From: Caldisericaceae bacterium
Lineage (GTDB): Bacteria > Caldisericota > Caldisericia > Caldisericales > Caldisericaceae
DNA: 30,643 nt
Assembly: GCA_049967855.1 (NCBI GenBank)
Contig: JBMFRX010000014.1
Location: 1-30,643, forward strand
Reading direction: 5' to 3'
In this document: positions 7,958 to 20,458 of the stretch, in pieces
How positions within the stretch are numbered: the stretch's first letter is position 1
How the letters are laid out: every line of letters begins with the position of its first letter
The notes under the pieces: generated by a model
Seen by the model: only the letters and a program-made list of their open reading frames with translations
What the model was told of the DNA's origin: nothing
Database searches by the model: none
Made by a program: the position numbers and the translations under genes

Positions 7958-8329
7958 ATGGAAAAACAAGATTTAGAAAAAGCAGCAAAGTCAGTTTCTA
8001 AAGAAGCAGCAGAGACTGTTAAGAAAGCTGTTGCTGGAGCAAAGGAAACAGCAGAGCAAGCAGCAAAGACTGTGAAAACTGCAGCTGTTGAGGCAAAAGA
8101 TGTTGGAATCAAGGCTGCCGCAAAGACAAAAGAGGTGCTTGCAGAAACCGAAAAAAGCTCAGTAACCGTTGCCAAAGATGTTGCAGAAACTGGTAAGATT
8201 GCTGTAAGCGGAGCAGTTGAAACGGGAAAAAAGGCTGTTGAAGAGGCAAAGAAAGTTGCAGAGCAAGCAAAAAAGACTTTAGATTCAGCAGCGTCAGAAG
8301 CAAAGAAAGTGAAAAGACACTGCAAGTGA
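7958..8329 (+). CDS. Ala/Lys/Glu-rich helical-repeat hypothetical protein
   Basis: Strong GGGAGG RBS, co-oriented with neighbours, 11-residue periodicity. Confidence 0.7.
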   Translation: MEKQDLEKAAKSVSKEAAETVKKAVAGAKETAEQAAKTVKTAAVEAKDVGIKAAAKTKEVLAETEKSSVTVAKDVAETGKIAVSGAVETGKKAVEEAKKVAEQAKKTLDSAASEAKKVKRHCK

Positions 8330-8351
8330 GCTTTTAACTTAGGAGGTTAAA

Positions 8352-8735
8352 ATGAGCGATTTTTTTGACAAACTGAAGAAGGGAGCAAAAGAAACTGGTG
8401 AAAGAGCTTCAATTCTTGCAAAAATTGGTGGCATCAAAACACAAATTTCAAGTATCGGAATAAAGAAAAACGGCAAACTTGGAGACCTTGGGAGAAAAGT
8501 TTATGCACTGTTCACTGAGGGAAAACTGCCAGACGAGATTACAGCAGTACTTAAGGCAGAACTTGATGAGATAGTTGGCCTTGACAAGGAAGTGGAAAAA
8601 CTTAACGAAGAGACGGCAAAACTCAATGAAGATTTGAAAAAAGTTGGGGCAGCCGAACAGGAAACAGAGCCTCCAAGCCAACCTGAGGAGCCAAAGCAAG
8701 AGGAGCCAAAGCCTGAGGAGCCAAAGCAAGATTGA
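8352..8735 (+). CDS. Hypothetical coiled-coil protein with an EEPK-repeat tail
   Basis: AGGAGG RBS; amphipathic N-terminus MSDFFDKLKKG; coiled coil. Confidence 0.8.
   Translation: MSDFFDKLKKGAKETGERASILAKIGGIKTQISSIGIKKNGKLGDLGRKVYALFTEGKLPDEITAVLKAELDEIVGLDKEVEKLNEETAKLNEDLKKVGAAEQETEPPSQPEEPKQEEPKPEEPKQD
8682..8730 (+). repeat. Three in-frame 15-nt tandem units GAGGAGCCAAAGC(AA/CT)
   Basis: Units at 8685, 8700 and 8715 encode EEPKQ/EEPKP. Confidence 0.9.
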
Positions 8736-8741
8736 CCTGCT

Positions 8742-11000
8742 GTGTACAACCCTGTTATTGAAGATTTAAAGTCTGACGAGAACTATCACGGACAGTTTGT
8801 AAGGATTTTTGAATTGCCGGGAGAGACATACGAAAGTGTTGCTCTCCCTCAATTTATTTCAGAGCATCTGAGAACATCGCTCAAGAAGATTGGAATCAGT
8901 TCTCTGTACAGCCATCAGCTTGAAGTAATTGAACACATAAACAAAGGCGAGAATGTAATAATAACCACAAACACATCCTCAGGCAAAACGCTTGCCTTTA
9001 ACATCCCAATTGTGGACACATTAATCAAAAACCCTTTGAGTACTTCTCTGTATCTTTATCCCACTAAAGCCCTTACACAGGACCAATTGGAAAAATTCAA
9101 GGAGCTCAAAGGCGATTCAGGTATTGAAACAGGAGTCTACGATGGGGATACTCCCCGTGAAGAGCGAACACATCTTCGAAAATACGGCAGGGTAATTTTC
9201 GGCAATCCTGACATACTGCACTTTGGCATTCTGCCAAATCATATGAACTGGAGTAGTTTTTTCTCACACTTGCAATTTATCGTAATTGACGAAGCTCACT
9301 ATTACAGTGGCGTGCTCGGATCTCATATGAGCGAAGTCATAAGGAGGCTCAGGAGAGTTTGCAACTACTATGGAGCCCACCCTCAATTCATACTTGCCTC
9401 AGCAACACTCAACAATCCAGAGGAATTTGCCTTCAATCTGGTTGGAGAAAGATTCGCGCTGATAAGCAAAGAGGCTTCGCATACAAACAAGAAAACATTT
9501 GTCCTTTTTAATCCAGAGTTGATTGAACCAGGGATGAACCTCAGAAAAAGTGCGTACAAAGAAGCCGTGTGGGTAATTAAAAGGCTTATGAAGAATAATT
9601 TGAAGTCAATTGTGTTTGTGAAATCAAGAAAGGGAGTTGAACTTCTCACAAGGATGCTCAAAAACAACCTCGATGAAAACGAAAAGCCTCTCGTTTCATC
9701 GTACAGAGCAGGGTACACGGTTGACAAACGAAGAGAAATAGAAAAAAACCTTAAAGACGGAAGCCTTCATACCGTTATCACAACAAACGCTCTTGAGCTT
9801 GGCATTGATATCGGGAGCCTTGACGCCACTGTCATTGTCGGTTATCCAGGTAGCATATCAAGTATAATGCAGCAATCCGGGCGGTCAGGCAGAAAAGGGG
9901 ACTCTCTTACCGTCTTTATTACAAGCTCAAATCCAATTGATCAGTACTTTGCAAAAGACCCAATGTACATCTTTGAAAACCACTACGAAAACTTGACAGT
10001 TAACCCTCACAACCCATACATCGAGTTGCCGCATCTTAAATGCGCAGCATACGAAATACCAATTGACCCAGAAGTTGATGATGAATATTTTGGTCAGGGC
10101 TTCAGAGAAGGAATTAATTTACTCAAATCAGAAGGATATCTGGAAAAGCGTCTTAATCACTACTTTTACGTATCAAAGGACGCCCCTCATCCTTCAATAA
10201 ACTTGAGGACAGAAGGAGAAGAGCAAATTGACTTGATTGATGATACAACAAATATCACTCTCGAACGTATTTCAAGGAGCAGAGCAATTGAAGAAGCATT
10301 TCCAGGAGCGGTGTATCTGCACTTAACAGACACCTACATAGTAAAGGAATTAAACCTCCTCAAGCATTTTGCCTTGCTCACAAAGGAAGATTCAGAATAC
10401 TACACCGACTCTCTTGCAATTGAATCTATCTGGATTGAGAAAACCCTCTCAGAAAAAAGATTCCATAACATTGATGTCTCCTACGGAGATGTTCTTGTTC
10501 AAGAGATTGTAAGGGGCTTTGTCAAGAAACAGTTCGAGACCGATAAGAAAATAGGCACGGAAATCTTGGAATTACCCGATATCAAATTTCACACTAAAGC
10601 ACTCTGGTTTACAATGGAGCAAAGCCTTTTCAAGAGAGTTTTGAAGGAAGGGGAAGATATTCCAGGGACAATACATGCTGTAGAACATTCTATGGTTGGC
10701 ATAATGCCTCTTATTGTTGTGTGTGATAGGAACGACCTTGGAGGAGTTTCGCATCCACTGCACCCTGACACAGGGCTTGCTACAATTTTTGTTTATGACG
10801 GGATTGAAGGCGGCGTTGGCTTAACAGAAAAGGGATACGAGCATATTGAGGAGTTGCTTACATCCTCACTCAAAAGCATTGCGTCCTGTCCATGTAAAGA
10901 CGGATGCCCATCCTGCATCTACTCACCAAAGTGCGGAAATGAAAATAGTCCGCTGAGCAAAAAAGGTGCAATTATACTTTTGGAGGATATTTTGAAATGA
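8742..11000 (+). CDS. SF2 DEAH helicase with C-terminal DUF1998 (MrfA/YprA/SftH/Hrq1 family)
   Basis: TSSGKT, YPTKAL, DEAH, SAT, LELGIDIG, QQSGRSGR, terminal CPCKDGCPSC. Confidence 0.92.
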   Translation: MYNPVIEDLKSDENYHGQFVRIFELPGETYESVALPQFISEHLRTSLKKIGISSLYSHQLEVIEHINKGENVIITTNTSSGKTLAFNIPIVDTLIKNPLSTSLYLYPTKALTQDQLEKFKELKGDSGIETGVYDGDTPREERTHLRKYGRVIFGNPDILHFGILPNHMNWSSFFSHLQFIVIDEAHYYSGVLGSHMSEVIRRLRRVCNYYGAHPQFILASATLNNPEEFAFNLVGERFALISKEASHTNKKTFVLFNPELIEPGMNLRKSAYKEAVWVIKRLMKNNLKSIVFVKSRKGVELLTRMLKNNLDENEKPLVSSYRAGYTVDKRREIEKNLKDGSLHTVITTNALELGIDIGSLDATVIVGYPGSISSIMQQSGRSGRKGDSLTVFITSSNPIDQYFAKDPMYIFENHYENLTVNPHNPYIELPHLKCAAYEIPIDPEVDDEYFGQGFREGINLLKSEGYLEKRLNHYFYVSKDAPHPSINLRTEGEEQIDLIDDTTNITLERISRSRAIEEAFPGAVYLHLTDTYIVKELNLLKHFALLTKEDSEYYTDSLAIESIWIEKTLSEKRFHNIDVSYGDVLVQEIVRGFVKKQFETDKKIGTEILELPDIKFHTKALWFTMEQSLFKRVLKEGEDIPGTIHAVEHSMVGIMPLIVVCDRNDLGGVSHPLHPDTGLATIFVYDGIEGGVGLTEKGYEHIEELLTSSLKSIASCPCKDGCPSCIYSPKCGNENSPLSKKGAIILLEDILK

Positions 11001-15906: not shown

Positions 15907-16428
15907 ATGAAAAGAGCTCTTCTCATTGTAGATATGCTGAATGATTTCGTGGAAGATTGGGGGACGCTGAAAGTGGACGGAGCAAAAGAGATTATTCCTC
16001 AAATCCTCAAACAGAAAGAGGCATTTGTGGAGAGCGGAGAGCCCATAATTTATCTCTGCGATTCGCACACTGTAAACGATGATGAGTTCAAACTCTGGCC
16101 CCCTCACTGCGTAGAAGGCACCAAAGGAGCCGAGGTCGTAGACGAGCTCAAACCTGGAGACACTGATATAGTAATCAAAAAAACAACTTACTCAGGATTT
16201 TTTGGGACAAATCTCAACGAAACTCTCAGGGCATTGGCAGTGAAAGAACTTTACATAACTGGCGTTGCAATGAACATATGCGTGCATTATACAGCAGCGG
16301 ATGCAAGAATGCTTGGATACAGTGTCACTGTTCCGCTTGACTGCGTGAAGGGTCTTACAAAAGAGGACGAAGAATATATGAAGAAGCAATTCAAGAATGT
16401 TTTGAATGTAAATCTCATAGGAGGGTGA
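15907..16428 (+). CDS. Isochorismatase-family cysteine hydrolase (nicotinamidase-like)
   Basis: VDMLNDF, DSH, WPPHC, KKTTYS, NICV; start moved to ATG 15907. Confidence 0.88.
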   Translation: MKRALLIVDMLNDFVEDWGTLKVDGAKEIIPQILKQKEAFVESGEPIIYLCDSHTVNDDEFKLWPPHCVEGTKGAEVVDELKPGDTDIVIKKTTYSGFFGTNLNETLRALAVKELYITGVAMNICVHYTAADARMLGYSVTVPLDCVKGLTKEDEEYMKKQFKNVLNVNLIGG

Positions 16429-16432
16429 CAGG

Positions 16433-17095
16433 GTGATTACAAAGGATAGCATATACGAACAAATCGCCAAAGCAAAAGAAGCAGGGGCAACAAAAAGCGA
16501 TTTAGGATGGAGAAAGAAAGACGCAAAAGAAATTGTTGAGAGATTTCTTGCCGAACTTGAACAGGAAAGTAAAATCTTTCAGAAAGGAAACCGCTACTAC
16601 ATCTACGGAACCTCTGTGCAGGCCAAAAAAACAACAAGAACTGGAGCTCCATCGGACATAAAAGAAATTCTCAAAGATTATGTGAAGAGGGATGAGCTTG
16701 AAGTGATTCTTCAGGATGCGTATGAGAAAATTGCAAAACTCAAAGAAGAAATAGACAGGCTCTATGATTATTCAAATGATGTATTCATTGAGGTTAAAAA
16801 AAATATTTCAGGTAAAAGCTCTGCCGTTACAAGAGAGGAACTAAGAATAATCTACGACAACCTCAATTCATTTGGGCATTTTGGCGATTCTATACCGCTT
16901 CCTCTGTTCAAGGATGAGGTGATGAAAAAGTTTACAATAGATGAAGGTAAGTTGAACGAAATGCTCTTAGCCCTTGATGATGAGGGCGTAATTTACCTCC
17001 AGACCGCTGACAAACCAGACGAACTTAAAGACAAAGACAGGGGAATTAAATTCCAGGAGAGGCTCCTTTACTTTCTAACATGGATGAAGCGCTGA
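16433..17095 (+). CDS. Hypothetical protein, predicted wHTH, coiled coil, wHTH
   Basis: GTG start with GGAGGG RBS; two helix-plus-beta-hairpin segments flank a heptad region; fold is inferred. Confidence 0.7.
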   Translation: MITKDSIYEQIAKAKEAGATKSDLGWRKKDAKEIVERFLAELEQESKIFQKGNRYYIYGTSVQAKKTTRTGAPSDIKEILKDYVKRDELEVILQDAYEKIAKLKEEIDRLYDYSNDVFIEVKKNISGKSSAVTREELRIIYDNLNSFGHFGDSIPLPLFKDEVMKKFTIDEGKLNEMLLALDDEGVIYLQTADKPDELKDKDRGIKFQERLLYFLTWMKR

Positions 17096-19050
17096 TTGAA
17101 CGATTCAAAGCCTTAGAGCCGTTCAGCATTAGCATAATAAACAATCCCTGGCAAGAGGGCGTAATTGACGTCTTTGAAATCAACAAGACTTCTTTTGATT
17201 CTGTAATAGGACGATTGAAATCAATCAAGGAGAATGGCCGCTCTGAGATTTTTGTACTTCAGGGAGAACCTGGAAGCGGGAAGTCACATCTCTTGTGGAG
17301 GATAGCAAAGAACGCTGAGAAAGAGTTCTTCCTTTTTGCAAGTTTCAATCCTCTTGTGGTAAATAGAGAACTCACGTATGTTTCAATACTTCAATCTGTA
17401 GTTGAAAGCCTGTTGAAAAAACATTCTGAGCTCAAAACAAAACCAATCGACCACATCATCGGCGAAATCATTTACTCAGGTTTAGTCAATTTCGACAACT
17501 CCAAACTGAAAGTTAATCCAATCATCTTATCTGCCATACAGGAAAAAAAACACAAAAAACTTCCCTATGTCTATAAAGAAGAGTTTGCACATTTCCCTGA
17601 GCAGGATATAAACAAGCTCATTCCAGTAATCACAGAAAATGCTTTTTCCGAACTCCATTCCAACAACTACATTCCGAAAAGGTATCTCAGGGGAATTATC
17701 TCAGGCCTTATAAACCCAGCGACATTAGATTTAACAATTGACCTTTTGAATGGCGAAAAACTCTCAGAAGATGAGCTTAGCAAACTTAACCTGGCTAATG
17801 GTTTTATAGTGGATGATAACATAGCATTTGAATTGCTGAGAAGCTTTTTCATCCTTTCACCTTTTCCATTCCTTATTTCAATAGACCAGATAGAGCACAT
17901 TGACGTGAAACTGCCGAAAGAAGGAATAATAAAATTTTTTGAAGAGATAATTACTCTAAGCAATAGTTCTTCAAAGGTCCTTTTCTTGCTCACAGTGCAG
18001 ACTCAAACCTATCAAAAATGGGAGGCGTTTCTCCCAGAACATCTCAAAGCTCGGCTTGACAACAAGAGCACACTTTTCTCAATAAGCAGTGAAGAGGCAG
18101 CGGAGATAATCAAGCGCAGAATCAAAGCATCCTGGGATAAAATTGGAGTAACAAGCGACGATCATTTTTTCCCATTTGAAGAAGGGTTTGTGAAAGAGAA
18201 AATCAAATCAATGAAGCTAAAAGCACCAAGAATGGTTATTAATGCTTTCAATGCTTTTCTGAACGGAGAAGTTGGCGAACAAGACTCTTTAAAATCTGCA
18301 CTCAAAGATTACTTTGCAAAATCGTTATACAAAAGAGATGAGATGCAACGAGAAACAAGTGAGCTCATTTTGACTTTGCTACCTGCTTCGTGTCTCAAAA
18401 CAGCAAATACTTACACAATACTTTACTATGCAGGAAACGCCTATTCAATAAACAATTCAACACGCTCTTATTACTGGACAACAAAGAACCTTTTGAATTT
18501 CCTGAAAAAAAAGAAAATCCAGTCGGCACAGCTCATACGCGACGAAGTTCTAAAGATAAGTGAAAACACCGAGACAATGAAGCTTATCAAAAAAGCAGGA
18601 ATAAAACTTAAATACTATTCCAAAGACACAGGGAAAGAGTTTATTGCTTTGAGCAAAATGCTTAAAGATTGCGAATCTGGAGACCTTCTTATCGAACGAG
18701 ACAGATTGAATGCTCTTGCAATAGAGAAACTAAACAACCTGCTCGAGATTAACGAAGCCGAGAAAGAATACTACTCTGAGAAGACACCAAATAAACAAGT
18801 AGAAGAAGCTTCTTCTCACAGAAATATAGCTCACAAAGATGAGGAAAATGCAAAAGTGGAAAAAACAGTTGAAGCTATACTGAATTATATGAAGAGAGGC
18901 AAGAAAATAATAAATCTCAATACTTACCTTGAGGATAAGAGCGAGACACGCCTCATAAACGCTGTCACAGAAGAACTCCAAAAGATAGATACTGTTAAGG
19001 TAATGACAAGAGAAGATGGAATTGTCTGGCTTTCAGAAAGAGTATCTTAG
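17080..19050 (+). CDS. AAA+/P-loop ATPase of unknown function
   Basis: Walker A GEPGSGKS, Walker B-like FLISIDQIE, candidate Arg finger LKARL and sensor-2 APR. Confidence 0.85.
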   Translation: MDEALIERFKALEPFSISIINNPWQEGVIDVFEINKTSFDSVIGRLKSIKENGRSEIFVLQGEPGSGKSHLLWRIAKNAEKEFFLFASFNPLVVNRELTYVSILQSVVESLLKKHSELKTKPIDHIIGEIIYSGLVNFDNSKLKVNPIILSAIQEKKHKKLPYVYKEEFAHFPEQDINKLIPVITENAFSELHSNNYIPKRYLRGIISGLINPATLDLTIDLLNGEKLSEDELSKLNLANGFIVDDNIAFELLRSFFILSPFPFLISIDQIEHIDVKLPKEGIIKFFEEIITLSNSSSKVLFLLTVQTQTYQKWEAFLPEHLKARLDNKSTLFSISSEEAAEIIKRRIKASWDKIGVTSDDHFFPFEEGFVKEKIKSMKLKAPRMVINAFNAFLNGEVGEQDSLKSALKDYFAKSLYKRDEMQRETSELILTLLPASCLKTANTYTILYYAGNAYSINNSTRSYYWTTKNLLNFLKKKKIQSAQLIRDEVLKISENTETMKLIKKAGIKLKYYSKDTGKEFIALSKMLKDCESGDLLIERDRLNALAIEKLNNLLEINEAEKEYYSEKTPNKQVEEASSHRNIAHKDEENAKVEKTVEAILNYMKRGKKIINLNTYLEDKSETRLINAVTEELQKIDTVKVMTREDGIVWLSERVS

Positions 19051-19834
19051 CTTATCCGTATCAGACATTGTAACTATTTTCAAATGCCCGATGCAAGTCT
19101 ACCTCAAAAAGAAAGGCGTTAACGCACATTTCAGGTACTCTTTCAAATACAACATAGGAACACTTGTGCATGAGGTGCTTTCGCAGTTTGTAAGCGAAGT
19201 CAGAGCCCCAAACCTGTTTGGAGTAAATGTTGATTTTGGAAACGAGGATGAATTATACAAATTTATAGAAAAAAGTTTATATACAGCACTTATCTCAAAA
19301 ATGGAACAAAAGTCATACTCTAAATCTTATTTTGATATTGCCTGGGAACATTTAAAGGTTATGGCAAACTATTTTGCCAATCTCATAACCAATAACAATT
19401 CTTCCTTCAGCGAGATTTTCCTGTTTGCAGAAGAGCCTTTCTCATTCAATATAGACGAATCCATAATTATACAGGGAAGGTTTGACCTGCTTATTAGCGA
19501 TAATGACCAGCTTAAAATAATCGACTACAAGACAAAGAAAGAGGACTTTGAAAATGACATCGTGCAAGTTTCGCTCTACGCAAAAGGAATGGAGATTAAA
19601 ACAGGCAAATCAATAGAGCCAATGCTTCTTTACACAAGCAGAGACGGACTGAGAGAAATTAGATTCACAAAAGATGAAGTAGACCTCACTTACAGGCAAA
19701 TTGAGAAAGAATTAGCGGACTTTAAAAAGATGATTGAAGGTAAAAAAGAGCCACACAAAACCTATGATAGAAGCCTTTGCAGAAGATGTTCCGCAGCAAG
19801 TCTACCAATTTGCAAACAGGATTTGGAAGATTAA
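19016..19834 (+). CDS. RecB/Cas4/AddB-like PD-(D/E)XK nuclease with predicted 4Fe-4S ligands
   Basis: CPMQ, GTLVH, E...QGRFD...IIDYKT, QVSLY, C-terminal CRRC-x7-C. Confidence 0.88.
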   Translation: MELSGFQKEYLSLSVSDIVTIFKCPMQVYLKKKGVNAHFRYSFKYNIGTLVHEVLSQFVSEVRAPNLFGVNVDFGNEDELYKFIEKSLYTALISKMEQKSYSKSYFDIAWEHLKVMANYFANLITNNNSSFSEIFLFAEEPFSFNIDESIIIQGRFDLLISDNDQLKIIDYKTKKEDFENDIVQVSLYAKGMEIKTGKSIEPMLLYTSRDGLREIRFTKDEVDLTYRQIEKELADFKKMIEGKKEPHKTYDRSLCRRCSAASLPICKQDLED

Positions 19835-20412
19835 AAACTACTGCGCCACAAACCAATTACTTTGCCAACAATCTGAGTCTCTCTGGTTATGTATATTTCT
19901 CTGTAGACATCGTTCATTGGTACAAGATAAAAACCATCCCTTCTCTTTTCCAGTTTTTTAACCGTGGATTCATCGCCAATTATTGCAACGCAAATATCTC
20001 CGTCGCGTACCTGTGAGTCAGGGTCCACAACCACAAGATCGCCATTCTGAATGTGGCCATCGATCATACTATCCCCTTTAACGCGTAGCAAGAAAGCATG
20101 AGGATGGGCTTCTGGGTTTACAGGCAAAGGCAAGAATCCTTCAATTTCCTCAACCGCAACGGTTGGAGCACCTGCATGCACGGCGCCAAGAAGAGGGAAC
20201 TTATTGAGCCGCGGCGCAACTACTCTGAAAGACCGTGCTTTCCCTTCTTTCTTGAGAAATCCTTTTTTCTCTAGAGTGGCAATATGAGTGTACACCGTGG
20301 AAACGGAATGCAATCCAAAATGATCCCTTATTTCACGGTATGTGGGAAAGTGACCGTCCATTTCCTCCTGCGATATGTAATCGAGAATTTCTTTTTGCTT
20401 CACTGTCAACAT
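19831..20412 (-). CDS. lexA: SOS repressor LexA
   Basis: PTYREI wHTH, HAG cleavage site, GDSM Ser, TVKK Lys; ATG 20412 follows a GAGGTG RBS. Confidence 0.95.
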   Translation of the reverse strand: MLTVKQKEILDYISQEEMDGHFPTYREIRDHFGLHSVSTVYTHIATLEKKGFLKKEGKARSFRVVAPRLNKFPLLGAVHAGAPTVAVEEIEGFLPLPVNPEAHPHAFLLRVKGDSMIDGHIQNGDLVVVDPDSQVRDGDICVAIIGDESTVKKLEKRRDGFYLVPMNDVYREIYITRETQIVGKVIGLWRSSF

Positions 20413-20430
20413 TTTAATCACCTCTACACT

Positions 20431-20458
20431 ATTATACGAACATATGTTTATTATGCAA
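20431..20458 (-). promoter_or_regulatory. lexA promoter
   Basis: TTGCAT, 16 nt, TATAAT on the minus strand. Confidence 0.7.
20437..20450. promoter_or_regulatory. SOS box (GAAC-N4-GTTC type)
   Basis: CGAACATATGTTTA lies between the -35 and -10 boxes of lexA. Confidence 0.85.

Follow-up and report, generated by a model that had tools for sequence, protein, structure and literature searches.

In our study, a 30,643-nucleotide stretch of DNA from a Caldisericaceae bacterium (GenBank assembly GCA_049967855.1, contig JBMFRX010000014.1; the whole stretch is called the window here) was found to contain a triad of overlapping genes, A, B and C. These encode a protein with two winged helix-turn-helix (wHTH) domains, an AAA+ ATPase of the Orc/Cdc6 clade and a PD-(D/E)XK nuclease of the iron-sulfur (Fe-S) type, respectively. 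We read the triad, with a probability of roughly 0.55, as an Fe-S nuclease directed against invading DNA, nucleated by the A protein and loaded by the ATPase, and as an FtsK-less form of a predicted capture system. The parent class is already known from computational prediction; the FtsK-less form with a free-standing Fe-S-type nuclease is new here. The three genes cover 3.4 kb and are as follows:

16433..17095, plus strand: gene A, 220 amino acids, GTG start with GGAGG about 8 nucleotides 5' of it
17080..19050, plus strand: gene B, 656 amino acids
19016..19834, plus strand: gene C, 272 amino acids

The original prediction described three overlapping genes appended to a metabolic operon, and the open reading frames (ORFs), the overlaps of 16 nucleotides (A/B) and 35 nucleotides (B/C) and the operon on the pncA side were all confirmed. 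The triad is a genuine three-part DNA-acting module; its conservation, the purifying selection on it and its fixed gene order in relatives exclude chance.

The gene B protein contained an AAA+ region (residues 1-400), an alpha/beta middle domain (about 412-556) and a C-terminal wHTH domain (about 583-656). Its structure model (predicted local distance difference test, pLDDT, 83) was compared with 48,161 chains, and the best folds were those of Cdc6/Orc1 (Z 15-16, root-mean-square deviation 3.3, 239-247 residues aligned), followed by TnsC (Z 14) and BrxC (Z 11.4, deviation 5.0, 296 aligned). By this fold and by profile homology, B belongs with the Orc/Cdc6-family AAA+ ATPases of the capture systems. 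A sequence search of solved structures with B gave nothing at E < 0.26 and nothing credible for the middle domain. Intact Walker motifs had been claimed, and this stood for Walker A (GEPGSGKS, invariant in 17/17 family sequences); Walker B was also present but reads hhhhDQxE, with DQ rather than DE. The DQ was found in all 23 aligned family and distant rows, so that on the alignment it is a family trait and not local decay. R325 and R384 were invariant, and from AAA+ anatomy we take them by position to be the arginine finger and the sensor-II residue, respectively. The middle domain showed the order helix, three strands, helix, strand, helix, strand, was devoid of D/(D/E)xK, and was homologous to the same region of the distant ATPases. 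We infer from this order, and from the description in the main text of PMC10853773, that it may be an inactive restriction endonuclease (REase) domain; searches of Pfam and PDB profiles gave no REase match and thus did not confirm the fold.

Gene C was found to encode a free-standing nuclease of the RecB/AddB/Cas4 type with 1+3 cysteines and without FtsK (Pfam PDDEXK_1, E 3e-16). C24, H52, E139, D157, D170-Y-K172, Q184xxxY188, C255, C258 and C266 were invariant in 14/14 sequences, which confirms the RecB-type catalytic motifs and the split cysteine pattern noticed earlier. The cysteines are predicted to form a 4Fe-4S staple. With its invariant catalytic motifs and its kinship to FtsK-fused domains, C is predicted to be an active nuclease of the REase fold. 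Prediction of the B–C complex lent weak support to this pair: the score was 0.55 against 0.11 for the best control, and the runs shared at least 82% of contacts with a partner pLDDT of at least 79. Among 157 solved complexes 116 attained the same mark, as did 2 of 215 mismatched pairs; 18 of the 157 and both mismatches did so with scores of 0.60 or below.

Orc/Cdc6-coupled HerA/FtsK capture systems, with an anti-invader role predicted computationally, were described by Rakesh, Aravind and Krishnan (2024; PMC10853773). According to the main text of that paper, they consist of an ATPase with an inserted inactive REase, an active REase, HerA/FtsK and wHTH domains, often with an additional multi-wHTH gene. 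The FtsK-independent variants given there (REase-ASCH with a triple wHTH, and a second Orc/Cdc6 with KAP) are both of other architectures, and the words 'Cas4', 'Fe-S' and 'RecB' are absent from the main text. A scan of species genomes for B gave 24 loci, comprising 13 close relatives, 10 short matches to the P-loop region and one distant full homologue (L031). Ten of the 11 loci from outside Caldiserica were thus dropped as short matches to the Walker A region. The order at L031 was wHTH, ATPase and a PD-(D/E)XK-FtsKalpha-FtsK fusion, and hhalign aligned 499 columns of its ATPase with the B family profile (probability 99.2, E 2e-19). Together with the 30 loci of a metagenome scan that covered 7 of 64 parts, a full nuclease-FtsK fusion after the ATPase was counted at 10 loci; two further loci were truncated where the contig ended.

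A hidden Markov model (HMM) of the ten FtsK-fused nuclease domains ranked gene C first among the 6011 ORFs of the genome (E 0.003) and missed the stand-alone RecB-like paralogue. The hhalign score of C against the fused domains was 46.9, the best of 30 column shuffles being 15.1, and in a 35-row nuclease tree C and the fused domains made up one side of a branch with support of 95/82. Orthology of C and the fused domains is therefore favoured by the sequence comparisons. The 1+3 cysteine staple was found in 10/10 C rows and in 13/15 other RecB-like nucleases of the tree, and in 0/10 fused domains, whose rows stop before the FtsK part. A stand-alone RecB-family nuclease with 1+3 cysteines (64001-64771 on contig C5 of this genome, G000) was observed near polA and coaE-like genes and is kept in most of the family.

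The triad shares with the capture systems of PMC10853773, as its main text describes them, an Orc/Cdc6 ATPase with a domain between the AAA+ region and the C-terminal wHTH, an upstream multi-wHTH gene and a downstream nuclease predicted to be active; two wHTH domains were recognised in A by fold, and the ATPases of the FtsKalpha-type loci are directly homologous to B. It differs in that neither HerA nor FtsK is present in the locus and FtsK is absent from the genome, in its free-standing nuclease with cysteines, and in its vertical inheritance, unlike the mobile neighbourhoods reported there. The triad would thus resemble these systems in its working but lies outside the class because the translocase is absent. 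The statement that it matches no named system therefore did not hold, the triad being a motor-less relative of a predicted class. No description of the triad was found in the literature, in which PMC10853773 was covered by its main text; its supplement may list the triad.

The gene A protein was found to contain an N-terminal wHTH (residues 1-60), a long helix or coiled coil (83-125) and a C-terminal wHTH with an extended wing (130-220). In its AlphaFold model (pLDDT 77) both ends matched wHTH folds with a modest Z of 7-8.8, a range that may reflect just a common arrangement, and the Pfam match was MCM_WH_arc (E 0.0013). A is predicted to be the DNA-binding partner of ATPase B. Nitrososphaerota proteins matched gene A in an atlas search (0.90), which is a lead only.

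For the defensive reading, the following course may be proposed. The A protein would dimerise through its coil and hold DNA with its wHTH domains, the wing of the C-terminal wHTH touching B. On DNA, A would seed the ATP-dependent assembly of B, which would form either a ring or a filament on the duplex, the behaviour established for ATPases of the Cdc6/TnsC clade. B would then dock C, and C would feed a DNA end through its Fe-S staple, in the way that AddB and Cas4 nucleases thread DNA ends, and degrade the bound DNA. Self and non-self would be read from the structure of the DNA (free ends, replication or transfer intermediates) and not from a mark, because no methylase is present.

The flanks of the triad, both outside the system and assigned by Pfam, were as follows:

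15907..16428, plus strand: pncA/isochorismatase-family gene, constant 5' neighbour
19831..20421, minus strand: lexA, convergent flank

The original prediction looked to linkage of the genes across genomes, a patchy distribution and enrichment in defence islands; the first two were found, and the third was not. B was present in 14/25 Caldisericaceae genomes and 0/67 other genomes of the phylum, the C orthologue was present in exactly the same 14 genomes, and A was present in 22/25 and 0/67, respectively. In 12 of these 14 genomes a single contig carried A-B-C in that order; in the other two it was broken by contig ends. The pncA gene was directly upstream of A in 11 of the 13 B-positive relatives with A visible and in 9/9 B-negative genomes keeping A. 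These nine are among the 11 genomes devoid of B and C; the remaining two are 56% and 80% complete. The absence of B and C requires four changes on the pncA tree and on the A tree (the trees took in 5 of the 9 genomes), which suggests about four losses of B and C, with A retained.

The losses left traces in A. Its Q190, L179, G151 and G204 were invariant in the 13/13 B/C-positive genomes, on which these positions were picked, and were kept in only 1/9, 1/9, 2/9 and 1/7 of the B/C-less genomes, respectively; P195 was found in 12/13 of the positive set and in 1/8 of the B/C-less set. The core residues W217, K219, R220, Y141 and K160 remained in 9/9. The decaying residues belong to a GDS turn and to the wing (LQxAxxP...GI), the wing being also the segment that aligns with the distant wHTH partners. 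Because they decay once B and C are lost, we infer that this surface probably serves the ATPase and that the wing would be its contact.

Loss of this kind could also mean that the triad is a relic in decay: once a defence cassette, now without its FtsK motor and without function, and disappearing from genomes part by part. The four or so independent losses agree with that, as do the truncations of A in G003 and in G009/G016. The dN/dS of A, B and C was only 0.05-0.12 in three genus pairs (one C value was saturated), no internal stops were found in 16 B matches of relatives, and the catalytic and cysteine residues of C are invariant, so a relic is very improbable.

Several points are taken to favour a defensive role: the triad is homologous to members of a predicted conflict class, it diverges quickly while under selection (A, B and C have a median identity to this genome of 32-38%, and bcp, lexA and pncA of 61-69%), B and C are lost repeatedly, and the nuclease motifs are intact. 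The absence of an SOS box before A and the presence of HerA and NurA, by which resection is already provided for, point the same way. No LexA box was found within 200 nucleotides upstream of A at 13/13 loci. HerA is encoded once in G000 (3989-5533 on contig C28), in an unrelated context, and NurA on a separate contig (C3).

Several observations weigh on the other side. The motor that is central to the published model is missing, as no PF01580 match was found in this 99.99% complete genome. The C profile scored 83-87 against the stand-alone Fe-S family and 40-46 against the fused domains, and is thus closer to the former; the fused domains, for their part, are closer to C than to the stand-alone family (22-25). 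An approximately unbiased test did not reject the grouping of C with the stand-alone nucleases (p 0.13). The C-terminal wHTH of A matched the distant wHTH partners weakly (score 25.6 against 15.5, probability 15; the best HMM match in this comparison, E 8e-6, was to a family member). Across the family the triad is inherited vertically at a single housekeeping site after pncA and is not in a mobile neighbourhood. Among viral contigs no full-length relative and none with B was found, only two short P-loop-region matches with wide alignment, and plasmids gave no match for B or the fused nuclease domain. No defence-island signal was seen, since among 80 neighbours at 16 distant loci, which were called heuristically, there were 10 PADLOC matches, all to generic domains, and for five of these NCBIfam gave the names ffh, polA, htpG or a regulator. 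None of the 13 Pseudomonadota ATPase loci had a nuclease match (two end within 200 nucleotides of the ATPase), and no experimental test of the HerA/FtsK capture class was found in the literature.

With the distant ATPase, plasmids gave two partial cyanobacterial matches. On a Nostoc plasmid (NZ_CP040289.1, L043:6554-8959) a related ATPase is annotated with an exonuclease domain; it adjoins DUF262/DUF1524 genes that an ISL3 transposase interrupts, and a NACHT gene is close by, so that this distant member stands in defence-like surroundings.

The fixed site inside a housekeeping operon beside lexA would also suit a domesticated DNA-processing function, in which A and B would load C where forks stall, at broken ends or at chromosome termini. 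The purifying selection fits this, as does the position of distant loci next to polA, htpG, folP and aroA. The absence of FtsK and of an AddA-type fusion from the genome counts for it too. FtsK/SpoIIIE exceeded the Pfam cut-off in 2/61 genomes of the class, one of them a phage-like nuclease fusion, and the class appears to be without canonical FtsK. No fusion of the AddAB/RecBCD type was found in the genome, because the single UvrD-family gene encodes 700 amino acids and the only two PF12705 genes stand alone. Against a housekeeping role, B and C are missing from 11/25 family and all 67 other phylum genomes, HerA and NurA are already present, the LexA box is lacking before A, and the triad diverges faster than its neighbour genes. 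On balance we consider such domestication rather unlikely, though it is the chief rival of the defensive reading. The phage-like PD-(D/E)XK nuclease-FtsK fusion (L046:118-2163, genome G049) is followed by a replication-initiator-like ORF, and in the tree its nuclease does not group with that of the triad.

Pseudomonadota were found to contain the ATPase in 14 of 400 sampled genomes besides the centre genome. Of the 13 loci read (L098-L109 and L088), 12 had a wHTH partner and one (L101) an ATPase-FtsK fusion; the ATPase of L102 is split by a stop. Since none showed a nuclease match, an A–B core can apparently exist without the nuclease. No nuclease partner was found elsewhere in five wHTH+ATPase genomes, a search that had no positive control, and there was no match among 401 genomes sampled around one of Chryseobacterium, likewise without a positive control. 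These pairs, and the retention of A in 9 of the 11 genomes devoid of B and C, would also suit a regulatory pair with an accessory nuclease, A being a transcription or nucleoid factor put on DNA by B. In Tolypothrix PCC 7601 a DNA-binding gene is likewise followed by a putative ATPase gene; as reported in the text of PMC2799420, RcaD binds promoters, RcaG aids its binding, and the role is phycobiliprotein gene regulation. RcaD/RcaG are likened to A/B by that description and not by sequence. Against this reading, the catalytic residues of C are intact, and C is always lost together with B. A also relaxes after the loss, with longer branches in the A tree and a dN/dS of 0.26 against 0.10 for pncA in one B/C-less pair. 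A regulatory pair is accordingly held to be improbable.

Known systems were also compared with the triad. PADLOC gave only generic Cas4/DruK nuclease and Walker A matches, and no system-level match was found in the PADLOC, NCBIfam and PHROGs scans of the triad, a point on which the original prediction was supported. Its statement that the window holds no CRISPR array, cas1, methyltransferase or AddA was likewise borne out by repeat, Cas1, helicase and ORF scans: no methyltransferase was found among the 32 window ORFs, no Cas1 in the genome, and no regularly spaced array among the 20 largest direct-repeat families. C shares the PD-(D/E)XK core, QxxxY and 1+3 cysteines with Cas4, AddB and the stand-alone RecB-family nucleases, and its sequence matches among solved structures were Cas4-like and weak. 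It lies below the curated cut-offs for Cas4 (TIGR00372, 53.5 bits against 65) and for AddA/AddB. CRISPR adaptation was ruled out by this score and the absence of Cas1 and an array, and AddAB/RecBCD because the nuclease is neither fused to nor paired with an SF1 helicase subunit. BREX and BREX-related capture systems, as outlined in the text of PMC12839542, share an Orc/Cdc6-clade ATPase and a wHTH DNA-binding partner with the triad. BrxC is itself a fold match of B; the locus is devoid of PglZ, methyltransferase, BrxB, HerA and TGT, no BREX model matched, and no BREX genes (PglZ, BrxC with methyltransferase or PAPS reductase) were found in the window. TnsC and archaeal Orc1-Cdc6 belong to the same AAA+ clade as B (Z 14-16), and TnsC of Tn7 is a model of an adaptor-seeded ATPase that recruits a nuclease. 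In the triad no transposase, element ends or origin role are evident, and its genes are chromosomal and fixed.

The same-strand genes 5' of the triad were an OPT transporter, peptidase S58, bcp and pncA, with 4 nucleotides between pncA and A, and the convergent lexA overlaps the triad end by 4 nucleotides. The GC content of the triad (37-41%) is comparable to the rest of the window, and a promoter/terminator scan gave chance level only. An SOS-type box, GAAC-N4-GTTT, was observed at 20438-20449 upstream of lexA, with a matching box at 7/11 other lexA loci, two of the 11 being from one genome. SOS control of the triad was rejected, the box being upstream of lexA only. Just two strict boxes of this type lie upstream of ORFs in the whole genome, which suggests that the LexA regulon is very small. 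An MrfA/Hrq1-type DEAD-box helicase with a Zn-binding domain was found at 8742-11000, preceded by two small low-complexity ORFs (7958-8735) without a family match.

Further copies and neighbours of A were observed in relatives. At L017/L030 (G017, contig C17) a second A gene is followed by an ATPase ORF matching residues 1-137 only, either a paralogue in decay or an assembly artefact. At L166:2250-3038 (G020, contig C74) MerR/excisionase-type HTHs precede a second copy of the C-terminal wHTH of A in one fused gene, which is followed immediately by genes for a HinP1I-family restriction enzyme and a DNA methylase. In one family branch an FRG-domain gene (Pfam E 3e-27; L009:4147-4683 in G011) follows the triad or the remaining A, and such a gene also stands after C or A in G003, G006, G013, G018, G014, G019, G021 and G025. 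The FRG domain is linked to defence, and the gene may be an accessory effector.

In a quick tree whose deep branches were unresolved, the fused-type ATPases formed a clade that did not include those of Caldisericaceae (SH-aLRT 96). Because of this position, the absence of FtsK here and the kept cysteine staple, the FtsK pump was either never captured in the Caldisericaceae line or lost long ago. A tentative reading, for which we see clearly less than an even chance, is that the triad is a surviving minimal form in which a wHTH-seeded Orc/Cdc6 ATPase loads an Fe-S exonuclease. It draws on the same ATPase position and on the distribution of the staple among fused domains and other nucleases. That the pump was later grafted where the three C-terminal cysteines stood, the triad remaining vertical in an FtsK-less family, is possible to the same limited extent. 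If so, the triad would be the simplest member for studying the way in which an ORC-like ATPase directs a nuclease when no methylation mark is present.

The motor-less triad means that the hallmark pump of the predicted class can be absent while the remainder stays under selection. The approximately four losses of B and C serve as natural knock-outs, from which particular residues of A emerge as its likely contact with the ATPase. For one member genome the protein listing gives the name Caldisericum exile, so that defined sequences are available. If the triad is defensive, it would be a nuclease system that senses DNA structure and does without methylation; if it is housekeeping, it would be a conflict module domesticated in a lineage without FtsK and AddAB.

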